Counted from the stretch's first letter, positions 16,814 through 36,577 are shown. The stretch is 40,826 nt of DNA from Candidatus Brevefilum sp. (GCA_047921135.1 JBLRWR010000001.1:1-40826); one strand, 5' to 3'. Numbers and translations: made by a program. The notes: generated from the letters alone by a model not told the origin.

Positions 16814-18874
16814 TTAATTGGATAAGCAGAGCTGTTCGAATGCTGAGCCCGGGCCGGTTTCAACGCCGGTGCCCCGCCAGATGCCGCATATCCGCCCGTC
16901 AACTGCCCCACCGGAAGCCTCACTGACCATTTGACTGATCGAAAGGGCAGTTTCAATATCGCCGGTGCGCAAGAAGCCATCGATGAACACGAAATGTTCG
17001 GTCAGCTCATTGGCTAGGTCGTCACTGGCATAAGCCTGGTAACCGATTTCGGCCACCCGCGCCCAATCTCCCCGCTGGGATGCCAGCTCTGCATCCTGGA
17101 AGTAAATACACCAGTAATCGGTCTCTTCCAGTTCAAATAAATGTTCAGGTAAGGCTGCCCCCGGCGTTTGGTCGGTTTGGATCAGGTCCAGGTTGGAAAG
17201 GGGAATAGCCTCAGACATGGCTTTGGGCAGCATGAGCGGGTTGCGGTCTGGCCGGTTTGGGTCCAGTACGCGCAAGCAGTCTGGGGGTTCTGAATGGACA
17301 ACCAGCAGGTTGTCGGTTGAACTGGAAAAGTGAAAAGAGCGAAAATCTTTCTCAATAGGCCACCCGGCCTCGAGGGTAGGGAACTCTAACCCCAGGCGCA
17401 CGCTGAGGTAAAACACGGCAAAATCAAATTCATTGGTCTTGTTTTCCGTCGCATAGGTCCAGTTGAGCAGTGCGGTCAGGGAATCATCCTGGTAGAGGCT
17501 GAGGGATTGCAGATCGTTGATCAACAAGATCGTCCCGGGCGCCAATCCAGGGGCACGGCGCACCAATTGCTGAAAGTAGCGCTGCAAATCTACCCATTGG
17601 TTGCGGTATAAATTGGCATTCCAAAAATGCCAGCCGATTGAACCACCCACTAAGAACGCGATCAGGCCGGCGGTGATAACCTTTGACCAGGACTTAAACA
17701 CCGGCGCAATCCAGTGAAACACCCCGACCCAAAACAGCGCTGCCCAAGGGATGAAGACCAAAGTAAAACGGCTGTAAAAATGGCCTCCAATGTTCAGCTG
17801 CAGGTTGACCAGCCAAAACGGCCAACCGGCAAAACCAATCCCAGCCAGGGCCATCAGCACTGCAGGGAGGCCAAAATCAGCCTTCTTTTGCTGGAAATGA
17901 TTACGTTCAGATTGTTGCGATTTGCGGTGGAAAAAGCGCAGGAAAAAGAACACCAAGACTGTAGCAAAGATGGTCAGCAGCAAGTATGCCAGCCAGAAGG
18001 TTTGGCTGTAATCCTGGCTGGAAAGGCGCGGGAATGCATAACCCCACACTACGACGAGCGCATCAATAACCTGGGTGAAGACATCCCGCCACCAAGCCAG
18101 GGACACAATGTTTGCGCCCTCACCGCCCAGGAGCTGATAGGTTGGGAACCTGAAAATAAAAACCCGCCAGATCAGGAAGGCTAAAGTCACCAGGCCGTAA
18201 GGTACCATGTGCAGCAGGCTTTTTTGAAGGCGGGATGTGAGGCTGGTGTTTTGGCGGGCGAGGAGTATCCACACCACAACCAGGCGGACGGCCTCCCAGC
18301 CGATATAGTATTCGATGGTGAATTGGCTCAGGCCCGCGGCTAAAACAGCCGGCAGATGCCAGCGCCAGGACTTTGCAATGCCCCCTTCACGCTGTGACAC
18401 TTGCACAGCCTTGACTGTGCCGATTAACGAAAACAGGTACAGCGCCATGGCTGAAAAGTGGTGGTTGTAGATAATGGTCTTGGGTTGGCCCAAAAAACCC
18501 GGGTAGACGGCAAACAGCAGCGCGGCCCACAGGGCCTCGTTTTCATGCTGCGGCCACACCTGGCGCAGGAGGAGCCAAAACAGGAGGGCGCACCCCCAAT
18601 ACAGCAAGAGGCCAAAAATGTGGTACCCGATTGGGTTTGCACCCAACAGCCAGGTCAGCCCCATGAAGACCCAGGCGGAATGCGGACGGTCGGAGGCCAC
18701 AAAGTCCGGGTAACCCGCCGGGCCAAAGCGGTGGTTGACCAGCGCGTAGGGCAGGTCGTCCCAGTAGAGACCCAGGTCGGGGATCAATAAGCCGTAGGCT
18801 AAGATACACACCACCAGCAGGATCAGGGGGACTGACCATGTTGTGGTGGATTTGGCTTTAGTTGCTGTAGACAT
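16814..18874 (-). CDS. Polytopic membrane protein, probable GT-C-fold glycosyltransferase
   Basis: GLYWDD after the first TM helix, RP motif, many TM helices, soluble C-terminal domain. Confidence 0.55.
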   Translation of the reverse strand: MSTATKAKSTTTWSVPLILLVVCILAYGLLIPDLGLYWDDLPYALVNHRFGPAGYPDFVASDRPHSAWVFMGLTWLLGANPIGYHIFGLLLYWGCALLFWLLLRQVWPQHENEALWAALLFAVYPGFLGQPKTIIYNHHFSAMALYLFSLIGTVKAVQVSQREGGIAKSWRWHLPAVLAAGLSQFTIEYYIGWEAVRLVVVWILLARQNTSLTSRLQKSLLHMVPYGLVTLAFLIWRVFIFRFPTYQLLGGEGANIVSLAWWRDVFTQVIDALVVVWGYAFPRLSSQDYSQTFWLAYLLLTIFATVLVFFFLRFFHRKSQQSERNHFQQKKADFGLPAVLMALAGIGFAGWPFWLVNLQLNIGGHFYSRFTLVFIPWAALFWVGVFHWIAPVFKSWSKVITAGLIAFLVGGSIGWHFWNANLYRNQWVDLQRYFQQLVRRAPGLAPGTILLINDLQSLSLYQDDSLTALLNWTYATENKTNEFDFAVFYLSVRLGLEFPTLEAGWPIEKDFRSFHFSSSTDNLLVVHSEPPDCLRVLDPNRPDRNPLMLPKAMSEAIPLSNLDLIQTDQTPGAALPEHLFELEETDYWCIYFQDAELASQRGDWARVAEIGYQAYASDDLANELTEHFVFIDGFLRTGDIETALSISQMVSEASGGAVDGRICGIWRGTGVETGPGSAFEQLCLSN

Positions 18875-27673: not shown

Positions 27674-27942
27674 TCTTGTACGGATATGAAATCAGGCCGG
27701 TGATGATTGGTCATTTTTTTGTGGTCCAGGATTACTTGATGGATCTGCTCTGGGCCAGATTCCTCGTTTGATACACCCGCCAAGCCATCTCGCTTATCGC
27801 AGGTAGCGAAACAGGGTGCCAGGGTTCAATTGAGGCTTGCCGGGCCTACCCAGAATCAACCACCTGATGAATTTGTGACTGGTCGTTTCGGGTAGAATAT
27901 TATAAAATATCTAGACAATCAAAATCATTGCCAGGAGCCATT

Positions 27943-28635
27943 ATGCCTCGACAAACTTTAGATCGCGAAATTCATCATTTACAGGATGAAGTGCTTTTGC
28001 TGGGAAGCATGGTAGAACAGGCGATGTTGAACGCCATAGATGCCCTTAAGCGGCGTGATCATGAAGCTGCCAGGCGCGTTTACCATGGTGATGAAACGAT
28101 TAATGAAAAACGCTATGCTATCGAAAACCGGGTTTTGATCTTGTTTGCCACTCAGCAGCCGATTGCGCACGACCTGCGCCTGCTGGCAGCCATCCTCGAG
28201 GTAATCACCGAATTGGAACGCATGGGGGATTATGCCAAAGGCATCGCCAAAATCAGCCTCAAAATCGGCGAAGATGATACCCCCATGCCCGTCCGGGAGA
28301 TCAGCCGCATGGGTGACCTGGCAGTGGGCATGCTCCACCGGGCGCTGGGTGCCTTTATTGCCGAGGATGTCAACGCAGCCAACCGCATTCCCCAGGATGA
28401 TGACCAGGTAGATGAGCTTTATAACCTCATCTACCGCAAGAATGTGGAAGCGATGATTGCCAACCCGGATATCATTGATCATTCGAACTACATTATGTGG
28501 GTTGTGCATAATATCGAACGCATGGCAGACCGGGTGACGAACATCTGCGAACGGACAATTTTCATCGCCACTGGCGAACTGCTGGAGATCGACACCTCGG
28601 ATGACGAATGGGATGATGACGAGGACGAAGAATAA
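27943..28635 (+). CDS. phoU: Phosphate signalling protein PhoU
   Basis: QQPIAHDLR, ELERMGDYA, DDQVD and IERMADRVTNICE; AGGAG RBS before the ATG at 27943. Confidence 0.95.
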   Translation: MPRQTLDREIHHLQDEVLLLGSMVEQAMLNAIDALKRRDHEAARRVYHGDETINEKRYAIENRVLILFATQQPIAHDLRLLAAILEVITELERMGDYAKGIAKISLKIGEDDTPMPVREISRMGDLAVGMLHRALGAFIAEDVNAANRIPQDDDQVDELYNLIYRKNVEAMIANPDIIDHSNYIMWVVHNIERMADRVTNICERTIFIATGELLEIDTSDDEWDDDEDEE

Positions 28636-28665
28636 AATTACCTGATCTGAATACACACGCATATC

Positions 28666-28698
28666 CCACCGGCCGTTATCTGCCGGTGGTTTTTCTTT
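28666..28698 (+). terminator. Intrinsic terminator after phoU
   Basis: CCACCGGC-8 nt-GCCGGTGG followed by TTTTTCTTT. Confidence 0.8.
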
Positions 28699-28779
28699 AT
28701 TCTCTTGTGATAATATCTACGACACAAATCAAGTATAATGTTCATCATCTCCTAAGCATCTCAGCGGGAAAGGGTCATC

Positions 28780-29493
28780 ATGTTGAGAAAAAATGATACG
28801 CCGGGCAAATTGATCATTGTGGAAGGGATTGACGGCAGCGGAAAGTCGACCCAGATCGATCTGCTGTATAAGTGGCTGCGGGCGCAGGGACACTCTGTCT
28901 ATTTCAGTGAATGGAACTCTTCGGGCCTGGTTAAAAGCACCACCAAACGCGCCAAGAAGCGCAAGTCCTTCACCCCTACGACCTTCAGCCTCTTGCAATG
29001 CACCGATTTTGCCGACCGCTGGGAAAACCGGATTTTGCCCTTGCTCAAAGCCGGGGTGATCGTCCTGGCGGACCGTTATGCTTATACCGCCTTTGGGCGG
29101 GATGTGGCCAGGGGTGTGGATCGTGCCTGGGTGCGCAACCTGTACTCTTTTGCCATGCAGCCTGACGTAGCCCTGTTTTTCAGGGTGCCCCTGGATGTGG
29201 CCATCCAGCGCATCACCAGTGCCCGAGCCAATCTGAAATACTATGAAGCAGGTATGGACCTGAAGCTCTCTGAAAGCCGCATTGAAAGTTTTGAGCTCTT
29301 CCAGGCGCGTATCCTGGAGGAATATGATCGGATGGTGGATGAGTTTGGCCTGACTGTGATTGATGGCACGCTGACTGTGCAGGCACAGCAACGCTTGATG
29401 CGCGAAATTGTCAAACAAGAACTCAAGGGCTGGAAGGGATTGCCAATCCCCGAGGGAATCCCTGAAATCCTGATCCAACCAGAGCATGAGTAA
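28780..29493 (+). CDS. Thymidylate-kinase-fold protein with intact P-loop (putative PPK3 catalytic subunit)
   Basis: EGIDGSGKSTQ, basic patch KRAKKRK, TDFADR, ADRY and KYYEAGMD. Confidence 0.8.
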   Translation: MLRKNDTPGKLIIVEGIDGSGKSTQIDLLYKWLRAQGHSVYFSEWNSSGLVKSTTKRAKKRKSFTPTTFSLLQCTDFADRWENRILPLLKAGVIVLADRYAYTAFGRDVARGVDRAWVRNLYSFAMQPDVALFFRVPLDVAIQRITSARANLKYYEAGMDLKLSESRIESFELFQARILEEYDRMVDEFGLTVIDGTLTVQAQQRLMREIVKQELKGWKGLPIPEGIPEILIQPEHE

Positions 29494-29501
29494 GGCGGTA
29501 G

Positions 29502-30227
29502 ATGATGTCTGAAAACCAATTTTATGGTACCGGATTTCCTTATCTGAACATTCAAGACTGCCCCGGAAAGCTGATCGTTCTGGAGGGATCGGATGGTGTT
29601 GGGCGATCTACGCAAACGCAATTGCTGCGTAGATGGTTGGAGGATGAGGGTTATGCGGTTTCTGATACCGGTTTGCGCCGCTCTGACCTGACCCAGGAAG
29701 GGCTGGAAGAGGCTAAGAAGGGACATACCCTCAGCCGCATCACGATGAGCTTGTTTTATGCCACCGATTTTGCGGACAGGCTTGAAAACCAGATCATCCC
29801 GGCTTTGCAGGCTGGATTTGTGGTGCTTTCAGACCGCTACTTTTACTCCATCATGGCGCGCGATATCGTCCGAGGCGCAGATCCGGAATGGGCGCACAAG
29901 CTGTATGGCTTTGCCCTCAAGCCTGATTTGGTACTGTACCTGAAGGCAGATGTCTCAGACCTGTTAAGCAGGCTGATCCATGGGCGCGGGCTGAATTATT
30001 GGGAAGCCGGCATGGACATGCACAGCGCAGACAATCTTTTCGATAGTTTTTTAGATTATCAGTCTAAGCTGATTGGTATGTTTGACCAGATGGCGCAAGC
30101 CTATGGCTTTGTGACGGTTGACGCCGGCCGGCCGATCATGGAGGTTTTTGAAGACCTCCAGGAGCACATTCGCGCCCTGTTAGAAGATCAGCAGATGAAC
30201 CTCGAAGATGAAATGGTCTTATTGTGA
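29502..30227 (+). CDS. Thymidylate-kinase-fold protein with degenerate P-loop (putative PPK3 partner subunit)
   Basis: EGSDGVGRSTQ (Walker A Lys replaced by Arg), TDFADR, SDRY and YWEAGMD; paralogous to the upstream gene. Confidence 0.8.
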   Translation: MMSENQFYGTGFPYLNIQDCPGKLIVLEGSDGVGRSTQTQLLRRWLEDEGYAVSDTGLRRSDLTQEGLEEAKKGHTLSRITMSLFYATDFADRLENQIIPALQAGFVVLSDRYFYSIMARDIVRGADPEWAHKLYGFALKPDLVLYLKADVSDLLSRLIHGRGLNYWEAGMDMHSADNLFDSFLDYQSKLIGMFDQMAQAYGFVTVDAGRPIMEVFEDLQEHIRALLEDQQMNLEDEMVLL

Positions 30228-30277
30228 GGGGTAAGGAAAATTACGCGTTTCTCAATTAATTTAAAAAGGAAGGCGCA

Positions 30278-31360
30278 ATGGGTAAAAATGATCGTAGAGC
30301 CAATTGCCTGTTTGGTGCCCGATATATGCTCACCCAGGTGGAAGCCCTCCGTGTAGAGAGCCAGGGCGCGCTGGTTGGTGAAGATATTGAACATGTGCAC
30401 CAGATGCGGGTCGCCTCGCGCCGCTTGCGGAACGGGCTGAACCTTTTTACCCAATGTTTATCCGAGAAAAACGCCAAAGCCTGGGGCAAAGCGATCCGGG
30501 AGATCACCAAAGCATTGGGCCGCGCCCGAGACCTGGATATCCAGATTGACCTGCTCAACCGCTGTTATGCGGCGGATCTGGAACCTCGTTACAAGCCCGG
30601 CATCAATCGCTTGCTATTGCGCCTTGGGCAGCAGCGCAGCTTGGCCCAGGACAAGGTCACCCAAACGCTGGCCAATTTACAGGAAGCTGGCACCCTGGAT
30701 GGCATGGAAGCAAAATTGACTGCGATGACGGCGGGTTCAGAGAACCTTTACCTCTATACACCCTCGCTTTATCAGCAAGCTTATGAGGCGATTAATCGCA
30801 GCCTGGAGGAATTTCTCAGCTACGAAGGCTATATCCACAACCCGGAAAATGTTCCTGAACTGCACGCGATGCGGATTGCAGGCAAGCATTTGCGCTATAC
30901 CCTGGAAATCTTCGCGCCCATTTATGGCAATACGCTTGACCCCCATATTCGCGCGATGAAAAACCTGCAGGATCTGCTGGGTGATATTCATGATAATGAC
31001 GTGTGGATCGCCTGGTTGCCCGAGTTTATTGAACAGGAGGGGGCACGGGTGATGGATTATTTTGGCCATCGCGGCCCGCTAAAACGCCTTCTGCCGGGTT
31101 TGAACTATTTCAGTGCAGACCGTCAGCGTGTGCGTGATGAAAAATACCAATCCTTTCTTTCGCTCTGGGAGACTTTGATCTATGAAAATGCCTGGGAGGT
31201 AATGGCAGAGATTATCAAAGCACCCATGGATGTGGAAGCTGTTTTGGCGCATTTGGCACCTGAAAATCGAGCTGGCAGCCCACCTGAAAACCCAGCAGAC
31301 AGTGTAACCGAACCCGAAGCGCCCGAACCCCCGCCAGACGATCCCAGTTTTAAACGATAG
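30278..31360 (+). CDS. CHAD-domain protein (polyphosphate-binding family)
   Basis: VHQMRVASRRLR, LGRARDLD, LHAMRIAGKHLRY.LE and LQDLLGDIHD.DV. Confidence 0.93.
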   Translation: MGKNDRRANCLFGARYMLTQVEALRVESQGALVGEDIEHVHQMRVASRRLRNGLNLFTQCLSEKNAKAWGKAIREITKALGRARDLDIQIDLLNRCYAADLEPRYKPGINRLLLRLGQQRSLAQDKVTQTLANLQEAGTLDGMEAKLTAMTAGSENLYLYTPSLYQQAYEAINRSLEEFLSYEGYIHNPENVPELHAMRIAGKHLRYTLEIFAPIYGNTLDPHIRAMKNLQDLLGDIHDNDVWIAWLPEFIEQEGARVMDYFGHRGPLKRLLPGLNYFSADRQRVRDEKYQSFLSLWETLIYENAWEVMAEIIKAPMDVEAVLAHLAPENRAGSPPENPADSVTEPEAPEPPPDDPSFKR

Positions 31361-31369
31361 GGGCTGAGG

Positions 31370-32935
31370 ATGAAAATCACGGTGATCGCCGACGTCCACG
31401 GCAACCTGCCCGCGCTTGAAGCAGTGCTGCGTCACGCCCGTGGGCAGGGGGGAGGGGAGATGATCCTCAACCTGGGTGACCTGACGGGTTACGGTCCCCT
31501 TCCGGAGGCGGTCGTACGGTGGAGCCAGTCACCGGGTGTGATTAGCATTTTGGGGGATTATGATAAAAAAGTCGTCAGTAAAGCGCAAGGCCAGGAGGGC
31601 TGGTCGCGGGTGAAAACCGCGCACAAGCGGGAAATGTTTACCTGGACGTACCGGGCCCTTTCGAAGCGCTCACGTAAATATTTACGATCTTTACCCAAAC
31701 GGCTGGATATCGTTGTTGAGGATGTGAGGATTTCCCTGTCTCATGGCAGCCCTGCCGCACACCAGGAATTTATCGGCCCGGAAACGCCCGAAGTGCGCTT
31801 GGCAGAACTGGCCGCCGAAACGCAAGCAAAGGTGAATCTCAGCGGGCACACCCATCGAGCTTTTTACCGCCAGGTGGGTGATGTGCTGTTTGTCAACCCG
31901 GGCAGTGTTGGACGGCCCGATGATGGCGATCCGCGCGCCAGTTATGCGCTGCTTGAAATTGAGGGCGGGCATGTAGGGGTTCAGCATTTCCGGGTGCCGT
32001 ATGATATCATGGCGGCTGTGTCTGGCTTGCGCATGGCCGGGCTGCCTGAGGTGTTTGCCCAGGTGATCCGCCGGGGGTTGAACTATGATGATGTGGCTGC
32101 CGAACTGGGCATGCCATTGGGTAGTGTGGACCTGGAACCTTCAGGTGTGGTGAGCCTGCTGACCGATTTTAGCCTTGACGATCATTTTGTGGGTGTGATG
32201 AAGGGTGTCATTGCCGGGATTGCCCCACAGGCTATCATGCTTGATATCACCCACCAGGTACGGCCGCAAAATATTGCGGAAGGAGCGCGCTTGCTGGCGG
32301 AAGCCGTGCCGTATTTCCCACAGGGGACGGTGCATGTGGCGGTGGTAGACCCGGGCGTGGGCACCCAGCGGCGTGCCCTGGCGGCGCAAATTGGCGCGCA
32401 TTTCTTTGTGGCCCCGGATAATGGCTTGCTGTCGCGTGTGCTTGAGCAAGCCAAAGATGCGGGTTTGCCGGTCAGATGGGTTGCGCTGACCAACTCTGCT
32501 TTGTGGTTGCCCGAAGCCAGTACGTCCTTCCACGGCCGGGATGTCTTTGCCCCGGTCGGCGCACATCTGGCCAATGGCATGCCGTTGAGGAACCTGGGTG
32601 AAGAGATCAACGACCCGGTCTTGTTGTCTTTTGCACAACCTGTGGGGACATCCGCCGGTTGGCAGGCCGAGGTGGTGCTCATCGACCGGTTCGGCAACCT
32701 GAGCACCAATCTGCCCGGAGCGTATCTCCACGAGGGTAAACAGATCGTTGTCCGGGTTGGTGATGAAACCATCCAGGGGCTGAGCCCAACTTTTGGCGCT
32801 GCCAGCCCGGGGGCGTTAATCGCCTTTATCGACAGCACCGGCCACCTGGCGATCGCTGAGGTCAATGGGGATGCAGCTCGCAGGCTGGACATTAACACCG
32901 GAGCAGTAATTATTGTTGAGATTGAGGAAAAATGA
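31370..32935 (+). CDS. Fusion: calcineurin-like metallophosphoesterase + DUF62 SAM hydroxide adenosyltransferase
   Basis: N-half: DVHGN, GDL, HGSP, GHTH, NPGSVG. C-half from about 32141: LLTDF, VVDPGVG..RR, APDNGLL, SFHGRDVFAP, DRFGN. Confidence 0.88.
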   Translation: MKITVIADVHGNLPALEAVLRHARGQGGGEMILNLGDLTGYGPLPEAVVRWSQSPGVISILGDYDKKVVSKAQGQEGWSRVKTAHKREMFTWTYRALSKRSRKYLRSLPKRLDIVVEDVRISLSHGSPAAHQEFIGPETPEVRLAELAAETQAKVNLSGHTHRAFYRQVGDVLFVNPGSVGRPDDGDPRASYALLEIEGGHVGVQHFRVPYDIMAAVSGLRMAGLPEVFAQVIRRGLNYDDVAAELGMPLGSVDLEPSGVVSLLTDFSLDDHFVGVMKGVIAGIAPQAIMLDITHQVRPQNIAEGARLLAEAVPYFPQGTVHVAVVDPGVGTQRRALAAQIGAHFFVAPDNGLLSRVLEQAKDAGLPVRWVALTNSALWLPEASTSFHGRDVFAPVGAHLANGMPLRNLGEEINDPVLLSFAQPVGTSAGWQAEVVLIDRFGNLSTNLPGAYLHEGKQIVVRVGDETIQGLSPTFGAASPGALIAFIDSTGHLAIAEVNGDAARRLDINTGAVIIVEIEEK

Positions 32936-33031
32936 TTGCATTAACTTACCAATCTTGGGCAGTTGATGCAATGAATTTTCCACTTTCTTAGGTAAACAAA
33001 CTGAGATTGTACCGTCCTATTGGAGGAGTTT

Positions 33032-34822
33032 ATGACGCATTTACTTGTCATTGGCGGTCCGTCCCTCGATCGGCTGCATTTTAACAACCGGGTTGAGCCT
33101 TCAGCTGGCGGGGCTGGCTTGTATACCGCGCTGGCTGCCCATCGCAGCGGCTGCCGGGTCTCCATGTTCAGCCCAAAACCAAACCCCATGCCAGGCGCCT
33201 TGCAGCCCCTGGATAACCGGTTGGAAACCTGGCTCGGCCCAACCGTCACGGGTGAGGACATTCCCCGCTTTGAGATCGCCCACTCTGGCGATCAGGCGAC
33301 CTACCTGTCTTTTTTCTCCGGGGCAGAAGTGCGGCTGGATCCAGCCGGGCTGCCGCAAGACCTTTCTGCCTACGATGCTGTTCATATTACCTCCTTGGGA
33401 CGAGCTCACCAACAGCTCAGGTTTGCAGAAGCCTGCCGGGCGCGTGGCGCTGCAATGCTCTCTTGTGGAAGCCATCTGAGCTTAATCGAAGAAGACCCAG
33501 ACCTGGTAGAGCGTTTATTCGACCTTGCGGACCTGATCTTTCTCAACGAAGCGGAGGCCAGGGCGTATTTCGGTTCACTGGAGCAGGCGGTGACTGCACC
33601 GGGGAAGGTCTTGTGGATCACCCGCGGCCGGGATGGCGCGTTGGTGGTCCAGGGCAATTACACAACTGAGCTTCAGGCTATTGCCGCAGAGGCGCTGGAC
33701 CCAACCGGTGCCGGAGATACGTTCTGTGGGGCGACAGTTTCGCTTGTGCTGCAAGGCGCTCATCCGATCATGGCCGCCCGTCGGGCCATGGCACTGGCAT
33801 CGGAAGCCATTCAACATGTCGGCCCGACTGCATTGTTGTTTGAGCAGGACCCGCCCGCCATTCCATTGGATGAGCGGGTGCGGATCGATGAGGATCAGGT
33901 GGCGCGCCTGGCCGGGGTGATGAAAACCATTCCGGAAGCGGAACCGGTCCCTTTTGTCAGCGATTATTACCCGCCGGTCGGGCACCCGGCCGCAATGAAT
34001 TACTTCTTTGTGCAAACCTTGCAGCAGTTCAGCTTTTGGCACATTGCAGAAGGCCGTTACAGCCATCCACTGGTTGCCACCATTGATGGGCATCAATGCA
34101 AGGGCTCAACTTACCTCTCCTATGCCTACCTGCGCCCGCTGGAAGATGATGCGCACTTTTATTCCCCGCAGCGGCAGGCCCAAACGGACAAAACAGAAAT
34201 GCTGGCTTTGTTCCGCGCAGATGACGGCACCGATCCGATGCCGGCCGTCGACCTGCACCTGGCCATGGCCCAGGCTTACGGGAGGGACATGTCCGCCCTG
34301 GGATTATCGCCCCAGGCGATTTTGGCGCGAGCGAACCAGGCGGAGAAACCCCTCAAGACCTTCCTGTCTATCCTGGATCAGGTTGGCGGTTATAAGGAAG
34401 ATCCTTTTCGTAAGAAATCCAACCTGCTGGCGATGATCCTCAAGGAACGGCCGGAAGGCTTTTTACGCATTTCTGCCGATGAGGCGATCCAGCCGGTGAT
34501 TGATTACCACGTGATGCGGTTTTGCTTGCGGACCGGTTTGGTAGAGGTCATTGATGCAGCCTTGCGAGAGAAAATCGCCCAACGGATATTGGTCTCTGCG
34601 GCGGAGGAATGGGCTATCCGTTTTGCCTGTTACCGTACAATCCAAAAGCTGATTGATGTGTCGGGTTTGAGCATGGGCGCGGTGGATAATATTGCCTTTA
34701 ATTACAACCGCCAGCACTGCCCTGAGATGACTGAGCCCATCTGCGCAGCATGTGCGCTTGACCCGGCCTGTGTACACCGTAAGCACCTGTTCCAGCCGGT
34801 AATTCGGACGACGTTTTATTAA
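33032..34822 (+). CDS. Fusion: PfkB/ribokinase-family kinase + queuosine-salvage (DUF2419/QNG1)-like HhH glycosylase domain with Cys4 motif
   Basis: N-half: GGAG, NEAEA, TRG..G, DPTGAGD. C-half from about 33870: QFSFW, DPFRKK, IDYHV.R, EEWAIR, C-x7-C-x2-C-x5-C, terminal RTTFY. GGAGG RBS before the ATG at 33032. Confidence 0.75.
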   Translation: MTHLLVIGGPSLDRLHFNNRVEPSAGGAGLYTALAAHRSGCRVSMFSPKPNPMPGALQPLDNRLETWLGPTVTGEDIPRFEIAHSGDQATYLSFFSGAEVRLDPAGLPQDLSAYDAVHITSLGRAHQQLRFAEACRARGAAMLSCGSHLSLIEEDPDLVERLFDLADLIFLNEAEARAYFGSLEQAVTAPGKVLWITRGRDGALVVQGNYTTELQAIAAEALDPTGAGDTFCGATVSLVLQGAHPIMAARRAMALASEAIQHVGPTALLFEQDPPAIPLDERVRIDEDQVARLAGVMKTIPEAEPVPFVSDYYPPVGHPAAMNYFFVQTLQQFSFWHIAEGRYSHPLVATIDGHQCKGSTYLSYAYLRPLEDDAHFYSPQRQAQTDKTEMLALFRADDGTDPMPAVDLHLAMAQAYGRDMSALGLSPQAILARANQAEKPLKTFLSILDQVGGYKEDPFRKKSNLLAMILKERPEGFLRISADEAIQPVIDYHVMRFCLRTGLVEVIDAALREKIAQRILVSAAEEWAIRFACYRTIQKLIDVSGLSMGAVDNIAFNYNRQHCPEMTEPICAACALDPACVHRKHLFQPVIRTTFY

Positions 34823-34921: not shown

Positions 34922-36148
34922 ATGATGGCCATCGACATCCAAAAAATTCGCGCTGATTTCCCGATTTTGGGCACAACAGTTCATGGTAAACCCCTGGTCT
35001 ACCTGGATAATGCCGCCACCACCCAAAAACCGCAATCGGTGATCGACACGATCATCGATTATTACACCCGCTATAACAGCAATATCCATCGCGGCACGCA
35101 TCACCTTTCCAACCTGGCAACTGAAGCCCACGAAGCTGCCCGAAAAACCGTGCAACGCTATGTCAACGCCGAACACTCCCATGAAATCATCTTCACCCGG
35201 GGGACGACGGAAGCGATCAACCTGGTGGCTTTTGCTTTTGGAGAGGCTTTTGTCAGCCCGGGTGATGATGTGATTGTCACCGAGCTGGAACACCACTCCA
35301 ATTTTGTGCCCTGGCAGATGATGTGCGAGAGGCGCGGGGCTAACTTCAAAGTGATCCCCTTTGATGAAAACGGCGAGCTCCGTTTGGATATCTACGAGAA
35401 ACTGCTGAGCGACAAGACCCGCATGGTAGCCTTCAACCACGTTTCCAACTCGCTTGGCACGGTCAACCCGGCCAAGAAGATCATCCAAATGGCACATGAG
35501 GCTGGCGCTGCTGTGCTGGTGGATGCTGCCCAATCGGTTCAACACATCGAGCATGATGTGGTGGCGCTGGATGCGGATTTTTATGCCTTTTCTGGCCACA
35601 AGATCTACGGTCCGACCGGCATCGGGGTGCTCTACGGGAAAGAGCGCTGGTTGGACGCCATCCCGCCTTACCAGGGCGGAGGTGAGATGATCGACCAGGT
35701 GGCGGTGGAAAAAACCACCTATAACAAGCCGCCCTTCAAGTTTGAGGCGGGTACGCCCAACATCGTTGGGCCGATCGGGCTGGCCGCGGCCATTGACTAC
35801 CTGAATGCACTCGATTTCAACGCCATCATGGCTCACGAAGATGAGGTCCTGGCTTATGGGCGGGCACGGCTGCTGGAGATCGAGGGACTGACGCTCTACG
35901 GCAACGCCAAACAACGCACCAGTATACTGGCCTTTAATATTGACGGGGTGCACCATTATGACCTGGGCACCCTGCTGGATACCCGCGGTGTGGCTGTGCG
36001 CACCGGGCACCACTGTACCCAGCCGATTATGACCGCCCTGCACATTGATGGCACGGTCAGGGCTTCACTGGCCCTCTACAACACCCAAGAGGATATCAAC
36101 GCGCTGGTGGAAGCTATTCACAAAGTTCTGAAAATGTTGGGTCGGTAA
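34922..36148 (+). CDS. sufS: Cysteine desulfurase, SufS type
   Basis: YLDNAATTQKP, EHHSN, FSGHKIYGPTG, FEAGTP and RTGHHCTQP. Confidence 0.95.
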   Translation: MMAIDIQKIRADFPILGTTVHGKPLVYLDNAATTQKPQSVIDTIIDYYTRYNSNIHRGTHHLSNLATEAHEAARKTVQRYVNAEHSHEIIFTRGTTEAINLVAFAFGEAFVSPGDDVIVTELEHHSNFVPWQMMCERRGANFKVIPFDENGELRLDIYEKLLSDKTRMVAFNHVSNSLGTVNPAKKIIQMAHEAGAAVLVDAAQSVQHIEHDVVALDADFYAFSGHKIYGPTGIGVLYGKERWLDAIPPYQGGGEMIDQVAVEKTTYNKPPFKFEAGTPNIVGPIGLAAAIDYLNALDFNAIMAHEDEVLAYGRARLLEIEGLTLYGNAKQRTSILAFNIDGVHHYDLGTLLDTRGVAVRTGHHCTQPIMTALHIDGTVRASLALYNTQEDINALVEAIHKVLKMLGR

Positions 36149-36151
36149 CCT

Positions 36152-36577
36152 ATGGCAAGCATACAGGACATCCAGGCCCAGATTGTAGATGATTTCTCCT
36201 TTTTGCCCGAATGGGATGAGCGTTACGCTTACCTGATTGAGCTGGGGCAGAAAAACCCGCCCTTGCCTGAGGCCTACCGCACGGAGGAGAACATCGTACG
36301 CGGCTGCCAATCCCTGGTGTGGCTGCACCGGGAATGCCGCCAGGGTGAGGTTCACCTGCAGGCTGACAGCGATTCGTTGATTGTCAAAGGGCTGGCCGCC
36401 CTATTGCTGCAGGTGTTTTCGGGACAGCCCGCTCAAGCCGTACTCACTGCTGACCTGACCTTTTTTAAAGCGATTGGCCTGGATCAGCATCTTTCATCCC
36501 AACGCGCCAATGGCCTGCTGGCCATGGTCGATCAGATTAAAGCCTTTGCTGCAAAATGTGCGGGCGAGACTTCATAA
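36152..36577 (+). CDS. sufE: Sulfur acceptor SufE
   Basis: VRGCQS.VW, DSDSLIVKG and LSSQRANG. Confidence 0.93.
   Translation: MASIQDIQAQIVDDFSFLPEWDERYAYLIELGQKNPPLPEAYRTEENIVRGCQSLVWLHRECRQGEVHLQADSDSLIVKGLAALLLQVFSGQPAQAVLTADLTFFKAIGLDQHLSSQRANGLLAMVDQIKAFAAKCAGETS

Follow-up and report, generated by a model that had tools for sequence, protein, structure and literature searches.

Fusion of a PfkB kinase with a Qng1-like N-glycosylase bearing four cysteines: a candidate enzyme for salvage of guanine-type nucleosides

A 40,826-nucleotide stretch of DNA from Candidatus Brevefilum sp. (the window, that is, the whole stretch analysed) contains a gene in which a PfkB kinase is joined to a domain resembling the nucleotide hydrolase Qng1. 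This arrangement raises two questions: in what order the two domains act, and which base is released. The original prediction regarded the protein as a single-chain salvage enzyme for queuosine or another modified nucleoside. Our analysis suggests that the kinase probably acts first and that the excised base is of the guanine type but is other than queuine.

The gene and its two domains

33032..34822, + strand: whole gene, PfkB kinase plus four-cysteine Qng1-like N-glycosylase, 596 aa (open reading frame, Pfam, model)
33022..33026, + strand: GGAGG, resembling a ribosome-binding site, 5 nt before ATG 33032 (sequence)
33032..33856, + strand: PfkB/ribokinase-family domain, aa 1-275 (Pfam; structure and profile matches)
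33869..34819, + strand: Qng1-fold (helix-hairpin-helix) N-glycosylase domain, aa 280-596 (profiles, profile-profile comparison, models)
34718..34771, + strand: C563-x7-C571-x2-C574-x5-C580, predicted [4Fe-4S] loop of the endonuclease III type (conservation; alignment)

The frame runs uninterrupted from the ATG at 33032 to the TAA ending at 34822, and the structure model of the whole protein reached a pLDDT of 93.2 and a pTM of 0.93. We preferred this start to the TTG at 33020 because of the position of the GGAGG; most homologs are also 595-596 aa long, which matches the ATG start. The GC3 value is equal across the halves of the gene (0.64 and 0.65). The motifs quoted in the original prediction were all found in the single frame (NEAEA at 172-176, DPTGAGD at 223-229, VRID, QFSFW, DPFRKK, DYH at 491-493, EEWAIR and RTTFY), but the C-x7-C-x2-C-x5-C motif had been overlooked. 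Over the window, Rfam matched only a tRNA and no riboswitch or other RNA, and the promoter and terminator matches were at chance level.

In the N-terminal half, Pfam PfkB (PF00294) matched residues 18-267 (E 3e-22). The kinase motifs are intact (D13, G26-G27, N172-x2-E175 and PTGAGD229), and Y31 stands at the position of the ribokinase Asn. At the catalytic GAGD position, 86 of the 91 close-clade sequences have Asp and the other 5 have Glu. The top structural matches were the PfkB nucleoside kinases of Chlorobium (3kd6, Z 32.7), M. jannaschii (2c49, Z 30.6) and Burkholderia (3b1n, Z 30.2), the same three led the profile search, and 3kd6 has a GG-x-x-x-Y motif in common with the domain. That is, the kinase resembles nucleoside kinases most, with ribokinase next in the structural ranking (Z 29.9). 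The identity to these nucleoside kinases is just 20-23%, so that the substrate cannot be transferred from them; 3kd6 owes its name solely to its PDB title, with one passing mention in the literature. No NCBIfam equivalog matched the kinase domain at cut-off.

The ribokinases trail the nucleoside kinases by only 1-3 Z, and this closeness would suit a different role, in which the C-terminal domain acts as a hydrolase on some purine nucleoside or nucleotide, common or modified, and the freed ribose is phosphorylated by the PfkB domain, perhaps acting second, for use as carbon and phosphate. Loss of queC and queE would then mark a scavenging lifestyle. In some carriers the fusion adjoins a gene for a 5'-nucleotidase, a nucleoside phosphorylase, a purine permease or an adenosine deaminase, many relatives have no kinase, and the preference of S. 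thermophilus Qng1 (StQng1) for the monophosphate is just 1.7-fold in the available text of PMC9881137, all of which speak for such general catabolism. However, nucleoside kinases topped both searches, the source genome holds six more PfkB-like genes, to phosphorylate ordinary nucleosides and then destroy them would be wasteful, and Qng1 leaves AMP, UMP, CMP and GMP uncleaved according to the same available text. We therefore regard general catabolism as distinctly unlikely.

The C-terminal domain gave a Pfam Q_salvage (PF10343) match at residues 319-420 with E 4.5e-4; the PF10343 scores of 20.3 (this match) and 22.3 bits lie under the gathering cut-off of 25, which several homologs exceed. A single-sequence PDB search with this domain gave no Qng1 match. 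Family profiles matched human QNG1 (E 3e-6 and 2.4e-9), and profile-profile comparison with 25 canonical Qng1 sequences aligned the entire domain with a probability of 98.8-99.0%, at an identity of about 20%. The model of the domain (pLDDT 91.9) gave TM values of 0.72-0.77 to Qng1 chains (structures 7u07 and 7u91 of S. thermophilus and 7ugk of human) and 0.40-0.50 to MutY/endonuclease III. The VIA-align Z values were 28.9 for human Qng1, 27.7 for Sphaerobacter Qng1, 14.1 for AGOG (the archaeal 8-oxoguanine glycosylase, PF09171) and 13.8 for endonuclease III, with endonuclease III/MutY at 11-14 as a group. AGOG, the third structural match, acts on DNA and is a far weaker match than Qng1. Thus, judged from the models, the domain has the Qng1-type helix-hairpin-helix fold over its whole length, and the earlier assignment to the Qng1 side rather than to ordinary DNA glycosylases was borne out (Z 28-29 against at most 14.1 for any DNA glycosylase).

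The available text of PMC9881137 describes five structural features that shut the DNA cleft of Qng1. When secondary structure and alignments of the models, rather than coordinates, were compared, four of these appeared to be matched (the first beta-hairpin region, the two-strand sheet, the extra helix and the C-terminal tail), and the fifth, the hairpin within the HhH motif, appeared shrunk to a loop. An open DNA-binding cleft of the endonuclease III/MutY type was accordingly not seen in the models, which keep the insertions and the tail.

The four-cysteine motif is invariant in the close clade (91/91) and occurs at identical spacing in 44 of 51 standalone relatives; it is present in none of the 25 canonical Qng1 sequences, which have at most one Cys within the last 60 aa. 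The four cysteines, DYH and R-x-x-C all line up with endonuclease III, the cysteines with those that hold its cluster, in an alignment whose E value (2.6) is non-significant. Endonuclease III and MutY also have a helix-hairpin-helix fold and a catalytic Asp within D-x-H, and in them, too, R-x-x-C leads into four cysteines. Because of these correspondences we predict a structural [4Fe-4S] cluster, and by analogy with endonuclease III the four cysteines are likely to bind it. The first spacing is x7 in this gene and x6 in endonuclease III. Whatever its substrate, a Qng1-fold family with an endonuclease III-type cysteine loop links DNA repair glycosylases and metabolite hydrolases in a concrete way.

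These features can also be read as those of a glycosylase that acts on DNA or RNA polymers, in repair or in the removal of modified bases, with the kinase handling a by-product. The cysteine loop, the DYH and R-x-x-C motifs, the reduced hairpin of the model and the repair genes near the fusion in two groups of carriers would agree with this. Nevertheless, the structural scores lie with Qng1, the terminal Tyr is invariant, the remaining insertions that block the cleft are still there, and the fusion partners are small-molecule enzymes, so that action on polymers seems to us highly improbable.

Active site and base pocket in comparison with Qng1

StQng1 numbering was mapped onto the 91 close-clade sequences via a canonical homolog aligned to 7u07, and the following positions correspond.

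34412..34417, + strand: K461-K462, K461 corresponding to StQng1 K199 (91/91)
34502..34510, + strand: D491-Y492-H493, D491 corresponding to the catalytic StQng1 D231 and DYH resembling the DTH of endonuclease III (91/91)
34685..34699, + strand: D552...F556, corresponding to StQng1 D298 and W302 (D 90/91, F 90/91)
34817..34819, + strand: C-terminal Y596, corresponding to StQng1 Y323 (final residue in 91/91)

According to the available text of PMC9881137, K199 of StQng1 positions the ribose, D298 recognises the guanine face, and the free carboxylate of Y323 belongs to the active site. The catalytic and ribose-binding set is retained without exception, 91/91 each, for K461, D491, Y492 (Y232), F335 (F75) and the terminal Tyr, and E526 occupies the position of E267. 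The guanine-face and stacking set is also kept, namely D552, F556 and L465 (I203). In contrast, the residues around the queuine side chain are replaced. The amine network is changed from D69 to T329, from N72 to Q332 and from D207 to I469. The cyclopentenediol pocket is changed from P46 to F/V306, from W48 to F308 and from H53 to L/F/Y313, in a stretch (46-53) that aligns loosely, and further from Y93 to S/A359 and from W94 to D/F360. Its sole mostly retained residue is W299, which is W in 79 of 91 sequences and N in this gene.

Because the side-chain residues are replaced, we do not regard the gene product as a member of Qng1 proper. It also differs from Qng1 in lying below the Pfam cut-off, in the cysteine loop, in the fused kinase and in never being found beside tgt. 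From the sequences, Thr, Gln and Ile in place of Asp, Asn and Asp would fit a 7-substituent that is neutral or small, for instance the nitrile of preQ0, and the invariant K357, H493 and R560 could bind a 5'-phosphate. The change of Y93 to Ser or Ala could widen rather than narrow the pocket.

Such room at the Y93 position might favour true queuosine salvage, in which queuosine would be converted to its 5'-monophosphate and then to queuine. Qng1 is the nearest solved fold, carriers are without de novo synthesis, and the kinase that makes the Qng1 substrate is stated to be unidentified in the available text of PMC9881137. Against it stand the seven replacements at D69, N72, D207, W48, H53, Y93 and W94, and the TGT proteins of the carriers also argue for a different base. 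The motif GG[LI][AS]VG is present in all of the 30 best-scoring carrier TGTs and in six more, and its valine is tied to preQ1 use and queuine exclusion in the available text of PMC11570991. Moreover, three genomes (G034, G136 and G187) have, in addition to the fusion, a canonical Qng1 adjacent to a queuine-type tgt (GGSLGK). We therefore regard queuosine as a very unlikely substrate; the reservation in the original prediction, that the base might not be queuine, was the better reading.

Distribution, other fusions and gene neighbourhood

The fusion was found in records of Chloroflexota, Gammaproteobacteria, Marinimicrobia, Spirochaetota, Coprothermobacterota, Bacteroidota and Caldithrix, among the best 80 of 530 relatives, which may include kinase-only matches. 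Its nearest named relatives are Anaerolineaceae proteins of 87% and 69% identity. The PfkB-type N-terminal half is in frame in 91 of the 92 close-clade open frames from the genomes and the window (84 by motif search and 7 by reading the 8 exceptions; some genomes are counted twice), and matches to the C-terminal domain were found in 892 proteins, 327-1043 aa long. An assembly artefact was rejected on these grounds, and the fusion is widespread rather than unique to this assembly. No viral copy of the fusion was confirmed.

The distribution is patchy: in the 201 genomes of the window's class, the close clade occurs in 12 (one kinase-less, some partial), a distant cysteine-rich standalone form in 12, and PF10343 at E 1e-10 or better in 30. 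The standalone form (L095-L105, L111, L112) is about 335 aa long and carries 6-9 cysteines in its last 62 residues. Among 1.84 billion representatives there were 412 matches, many of them standalone proteins of about 320 aa. The 23 long matches (at least 389 aa) carried a PfkB domain in 20, and a degenerate kinase, nothing and GTP cyclohydrolase II in one each. One distant standalone relative weakly matches both PF10343 and AGOG (PF09171), and one Atlas cluster mixes these two families.

In a quick tree, the cysteine-bearing proteins lay on one side and canonical Qng1 on the opposite side. Independent origins of the fusion were not supported, since the kinase subclades mirror the glycosylase subclades in quick trees. 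This match suggests a single ancient fusion followed by losses. Many relatives have a degenerate kinase or none at all, and some lineages can dispense with it. Among 17 non-fused metagenome matches no separate kinase gene lay beside a kinase-less member, one broken fusion excepted. In three fusions (P0275, P0280, P0242) the kinase has lost the catalytic aspartate of GAGD or even the entire motif, and a DUF6884-like gene lies directly 5' of one kinase-less member (L208:5625-6014).

In another fusion (P0321, 6 cluster members; a second version at 63% identity) GTP cyclohydrolase II takes the place of the kinase in front of the four-cysteine Qng1-like domain. Only these two distinct versions were found, on a separate branch, and they have most pocket residues in common with the kinase fusions. 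The product of GTP cyclohydrolase II is a guanine-derived 5'-monophosphate (available text of PMC7109123). A GNAT gene follows both fusions, and the longer locus continues with methyltransferase, glycosyltransferase and PIG-L deacetylase genes. The cluster headed by P0321 lies on one strand (L143:7001-14546 and L144:426-2834) and comprises two GNAT genes, a TrmB-like methyltransferase fusion, a GT2 glycosyltransferase and a PIG-L deacetylase; it is possibly a pathway for a GTP-derived natural product.

These cyclohydrolase fusions raise the alternative that the family cleans up damaged or methylated guanosine. That is, 8-oxo-, Fapy- or 7-methyl-guanosine from RNA turnover would be trapped as the monophosphate, the base stripped and ribose-5-phosphate recovered, and in the cyclohydrolase fusions the reactive ring-opened product would be destroyed or processed. 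A RibA-fused damage-control N-glycosidase is reportedly a precedent. Clean-up would agree with the retained guanine-face Asp, with the position of AGOG and endonuclease III as the next structural kin after Qng1, with the shared pocket residues of the cyclohydrolase fusions and with the lack of clustering with tgt. It would also agree with two kinds of repair neighbour, a gene resembling an alkyltransferase immediately upstream at 13 of 188 loci and a gene related to AlkZ in the vicinity at 6 of 80, but each of these is restricted to one group of related genomes. Furthermore, the losses of queC and queE described below would stay unexplained, and the two cyclohydrolase fusions apparently belong to a biosynthetic cluster. 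We consider guanosine clean-up unlikely, although as a rival it is to be taken seriously.

A conserved operon was not found among 188 loci, the commonest neighbour occurring in 13. The neighbours speak partly for nucleoside metabolism, which would also suit a salvage enzyme, and in two groups of related genomes for alkylation repair. The tgt gene was present in 0 of 206 loci of the four-cysteine family (flanks of 1.5-8 kb, many short) versus 15 of 28 canonical qng1 loci. The neighbours in the window (a metallophosphoesterase/SAM hydrolase fusion, sufS, sufE and surE) recur in only 4-5 close relatives, surE excepted (10/80). The first of these (31370-32935), directly upstream, joins a metallophosphoesterase to an (R)-SAM hydrolase of the DUF62 type and is found in 4 close relatives. 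The sufS and sufE genes (34922-36577) follow directly downstream on the same strand, which suits an Fe-S client protein, and are kept in only 5 close loci. Further upstream, a two-component pair is followed by a row of genes at 27928-31360 (phoU, two thymidylate-kinase-like genes and a CHAD-domain gene) that resembles a phosphate/polyphosphate module. A 686-aa open reading frame at 16814-18874 has no Pfam match at E 1e-5.

Queuosine genes in the carriers and the proposed reaction

Gene content was surveyed in 50 of the 80 carrier records, picked for contig size and spread (two are probably one genome). A TGT match was present in 45, queA in 45, queF in 17 and queC in 4. In the family of G216 (Woeseiaceae), queC is present in 102 of 121 genomes overall, and in 1 of 5 full carriers versus 101 of 115 non-carriers (Fisher p 0.0017, uncorrected; without the unpublished queC-positive genome G276 the latter ratio is 100/114). 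One fragment carrier is also without queC. In the order of G239 (Marinimicrobia), 18 genomes have the domain and 4 of them queC (fused 4/13, kinase-less 0/4, fragment 0/1), versus queC in 87 of 133 without the domain (p 0.0006, uncorrected); this is a plain comparison of counts, irrespective of kinship and, in the genomes without the domain, of tgt.

The queE gene was absent from all eight queC-less carriers tested and present in two carriers with queC. In six carriers (G218, G224, G225, G229, G236, G349), queC-queE is cleanly gone between conserved flanks. In G226 (L388:2005-2199) a deletion scar is left, in which the beginning of queC runs directly into a small fragment of queE. Synteny was judged on the true flanking genes, cpoB having proved uninformative as a marker; the comparison covered queC-less carriers, among which G221 gave no clear picture. 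Because of the six clean gaps and the scar we regard the losses as real. Carriers with this loss still keep tgt, queA or queF.

We then examined the influence of kinship with a tree of 108 TGT rows, 102 from the 121 genomes of the Woeseiaceae family and 6 from other carriers; one long row lay outside the pair test. The carriers were scattered over several places on the tree, and the corrected test gave three supported independent pairs and none contrary (p 0.5). With only three such pairs, the link between the fusion and queC-queE loss is suggestive only. Thus the co-occurrence with tgt and with loss of queuosine synthesis that the original prediction proposed to survey was seen in part: carriers usually have tgt and are without queC, but the association did not withstand correction for kinship.

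Individual genomes point in both directions. The fusion occurs together with a preQ1-type tgt and queA in the complete genome G103 (99%), where queC, queF, QPTR and QueT had no match; since no known synthesis or uptake gene was matched, it needs some other source of preQ1, and the fusion is a candidate for how such genomes obtain it. On the other hand, queC is retained in eight carriers (G216, G228, G235, G240; G376, G404, G445, G489). G034, G136 and G187 have no queA or queF and, given their queuine-type tgt and Qng1, would have little use for preQ0 or preQ1. All five Anaerolineales without the fusion have queA and no queC, so that this genotype is the background in Anaerolineae and is uninformative there; the complete same-genus genome G185 is without the fusion.

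Taken comprehensively, we think it probable, if with some reserve, that a kinase step comes first and that the base then cut off is of the guanine type but is not queuine. The kinase-first order is the likeliest because Qng1 prefers the 5'-monophosphate, in the available text on it, and the cyclohydrolase fusion implies a nucleotide substrate. Pseudouridine kinase, a PfkB enzyme, and pseudouridine-monophosphate glycosidase act in this order and yield the base and ribose-5-phosphate; the kinase structure (PUKI) ranks 11th among the structural matches of the N-terminal domain, whereas the glycosidase has an unrelated fold and a C-glycoside substrate.

Within this scheme we tentatively favour salvage of a preQ0/preQ1-type nucleoside, because the queC-queE losses add to the kept guanine face and the altered side-chain pocket. 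A modified ribonucleoside of the guanine type would receive a 5'-phosphate from the kinase domain, and the glycosylase domain, by analogy with Qng1, would cut the N-glycosidic bond of the free 5'-nucleotide. D491 may serve as a nucleophile or stabilise an oxocarbenium ion and the terminal carboxylate may cap the ribose 3'-OH, both as in Qng1, with a putative structural [4Fe-4S] cluster as in endonuclease III. The products would be a preQ0/preQ1-type precursor base, possibly from archaeosine, and ribose-5-phosphate, and, to judge from gene content, the freed 7-deazaguanine might feed a preQ1-type TGT. In the available text of PMC11130926, the finding of a preQ0/preQ1 transporter next to a qng1 gene is called unexpected, so that there could be Qng1-like enzymes that act on preQ substrates, and QueK and Qng1 are given as the only characterised hydrolases for queuosine precursors. 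The lack of tgt beside the family, the queC-keeping carriers, the gene content of the source genome given below, the loss of the kinase and the fact that GTP cyclohydrolase II products are not 7-deazapurines count against preQ-type salvage.

If preQ-type salvage is true, the fusion represents an unrecognised salvage route, and the presence of both activities on one polypeptide offers a direct handle on the kinase step. We speculate further, in a proposal that is more doubtful as a whole, that an iron-sulfur nucleotide glycosylase family bridging endonuclease III and Qng1 supplies, with its kinase, a route so far missing, through which bacteria of sediments and the sea that are deleted for queC-queE harvest preQ0, preQ1 or archaeosine nucleosides from their community for queuosine synthesis, and that this kinase would be the first 7-deazaguanosine 5'-kinase. 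In a literature search outside subscription papers, neither the fusion nor a Qng1 relative with such cysteines was the subject of any paper found; members could figure in the family alignments and neighbourhood tables that supplement PMC9881137 and PMC11130926. New here are the usual combination in carriers of preQ1-type tgt and queA without queC, and the two relatives fused to GTP cyclohydrolase II instead.

In the source genome, whose assembly is 77.6% complete, queA and QPTR were found and queC and queF were not matched; none of its 17 radical-SAM-like motifs resembled, on reading, a queuine lyase. A possible mutual exclusion between the fusion and the QPTR transporter was considered; QPTR is present in 58 of 80 genomes and is common with or without the fusion. 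The usual tgt was not matched in the source genome beyond a divergent paralog fragment on contig C8 (L081:1486-1953), which is 33% identical to the usual tgt and ends at the contig edge. A second TGT-like match was also seen in about 9 of the 50 carrier genomes, and in G201 and G203 it lies about 6 kb from the QPTR gene.
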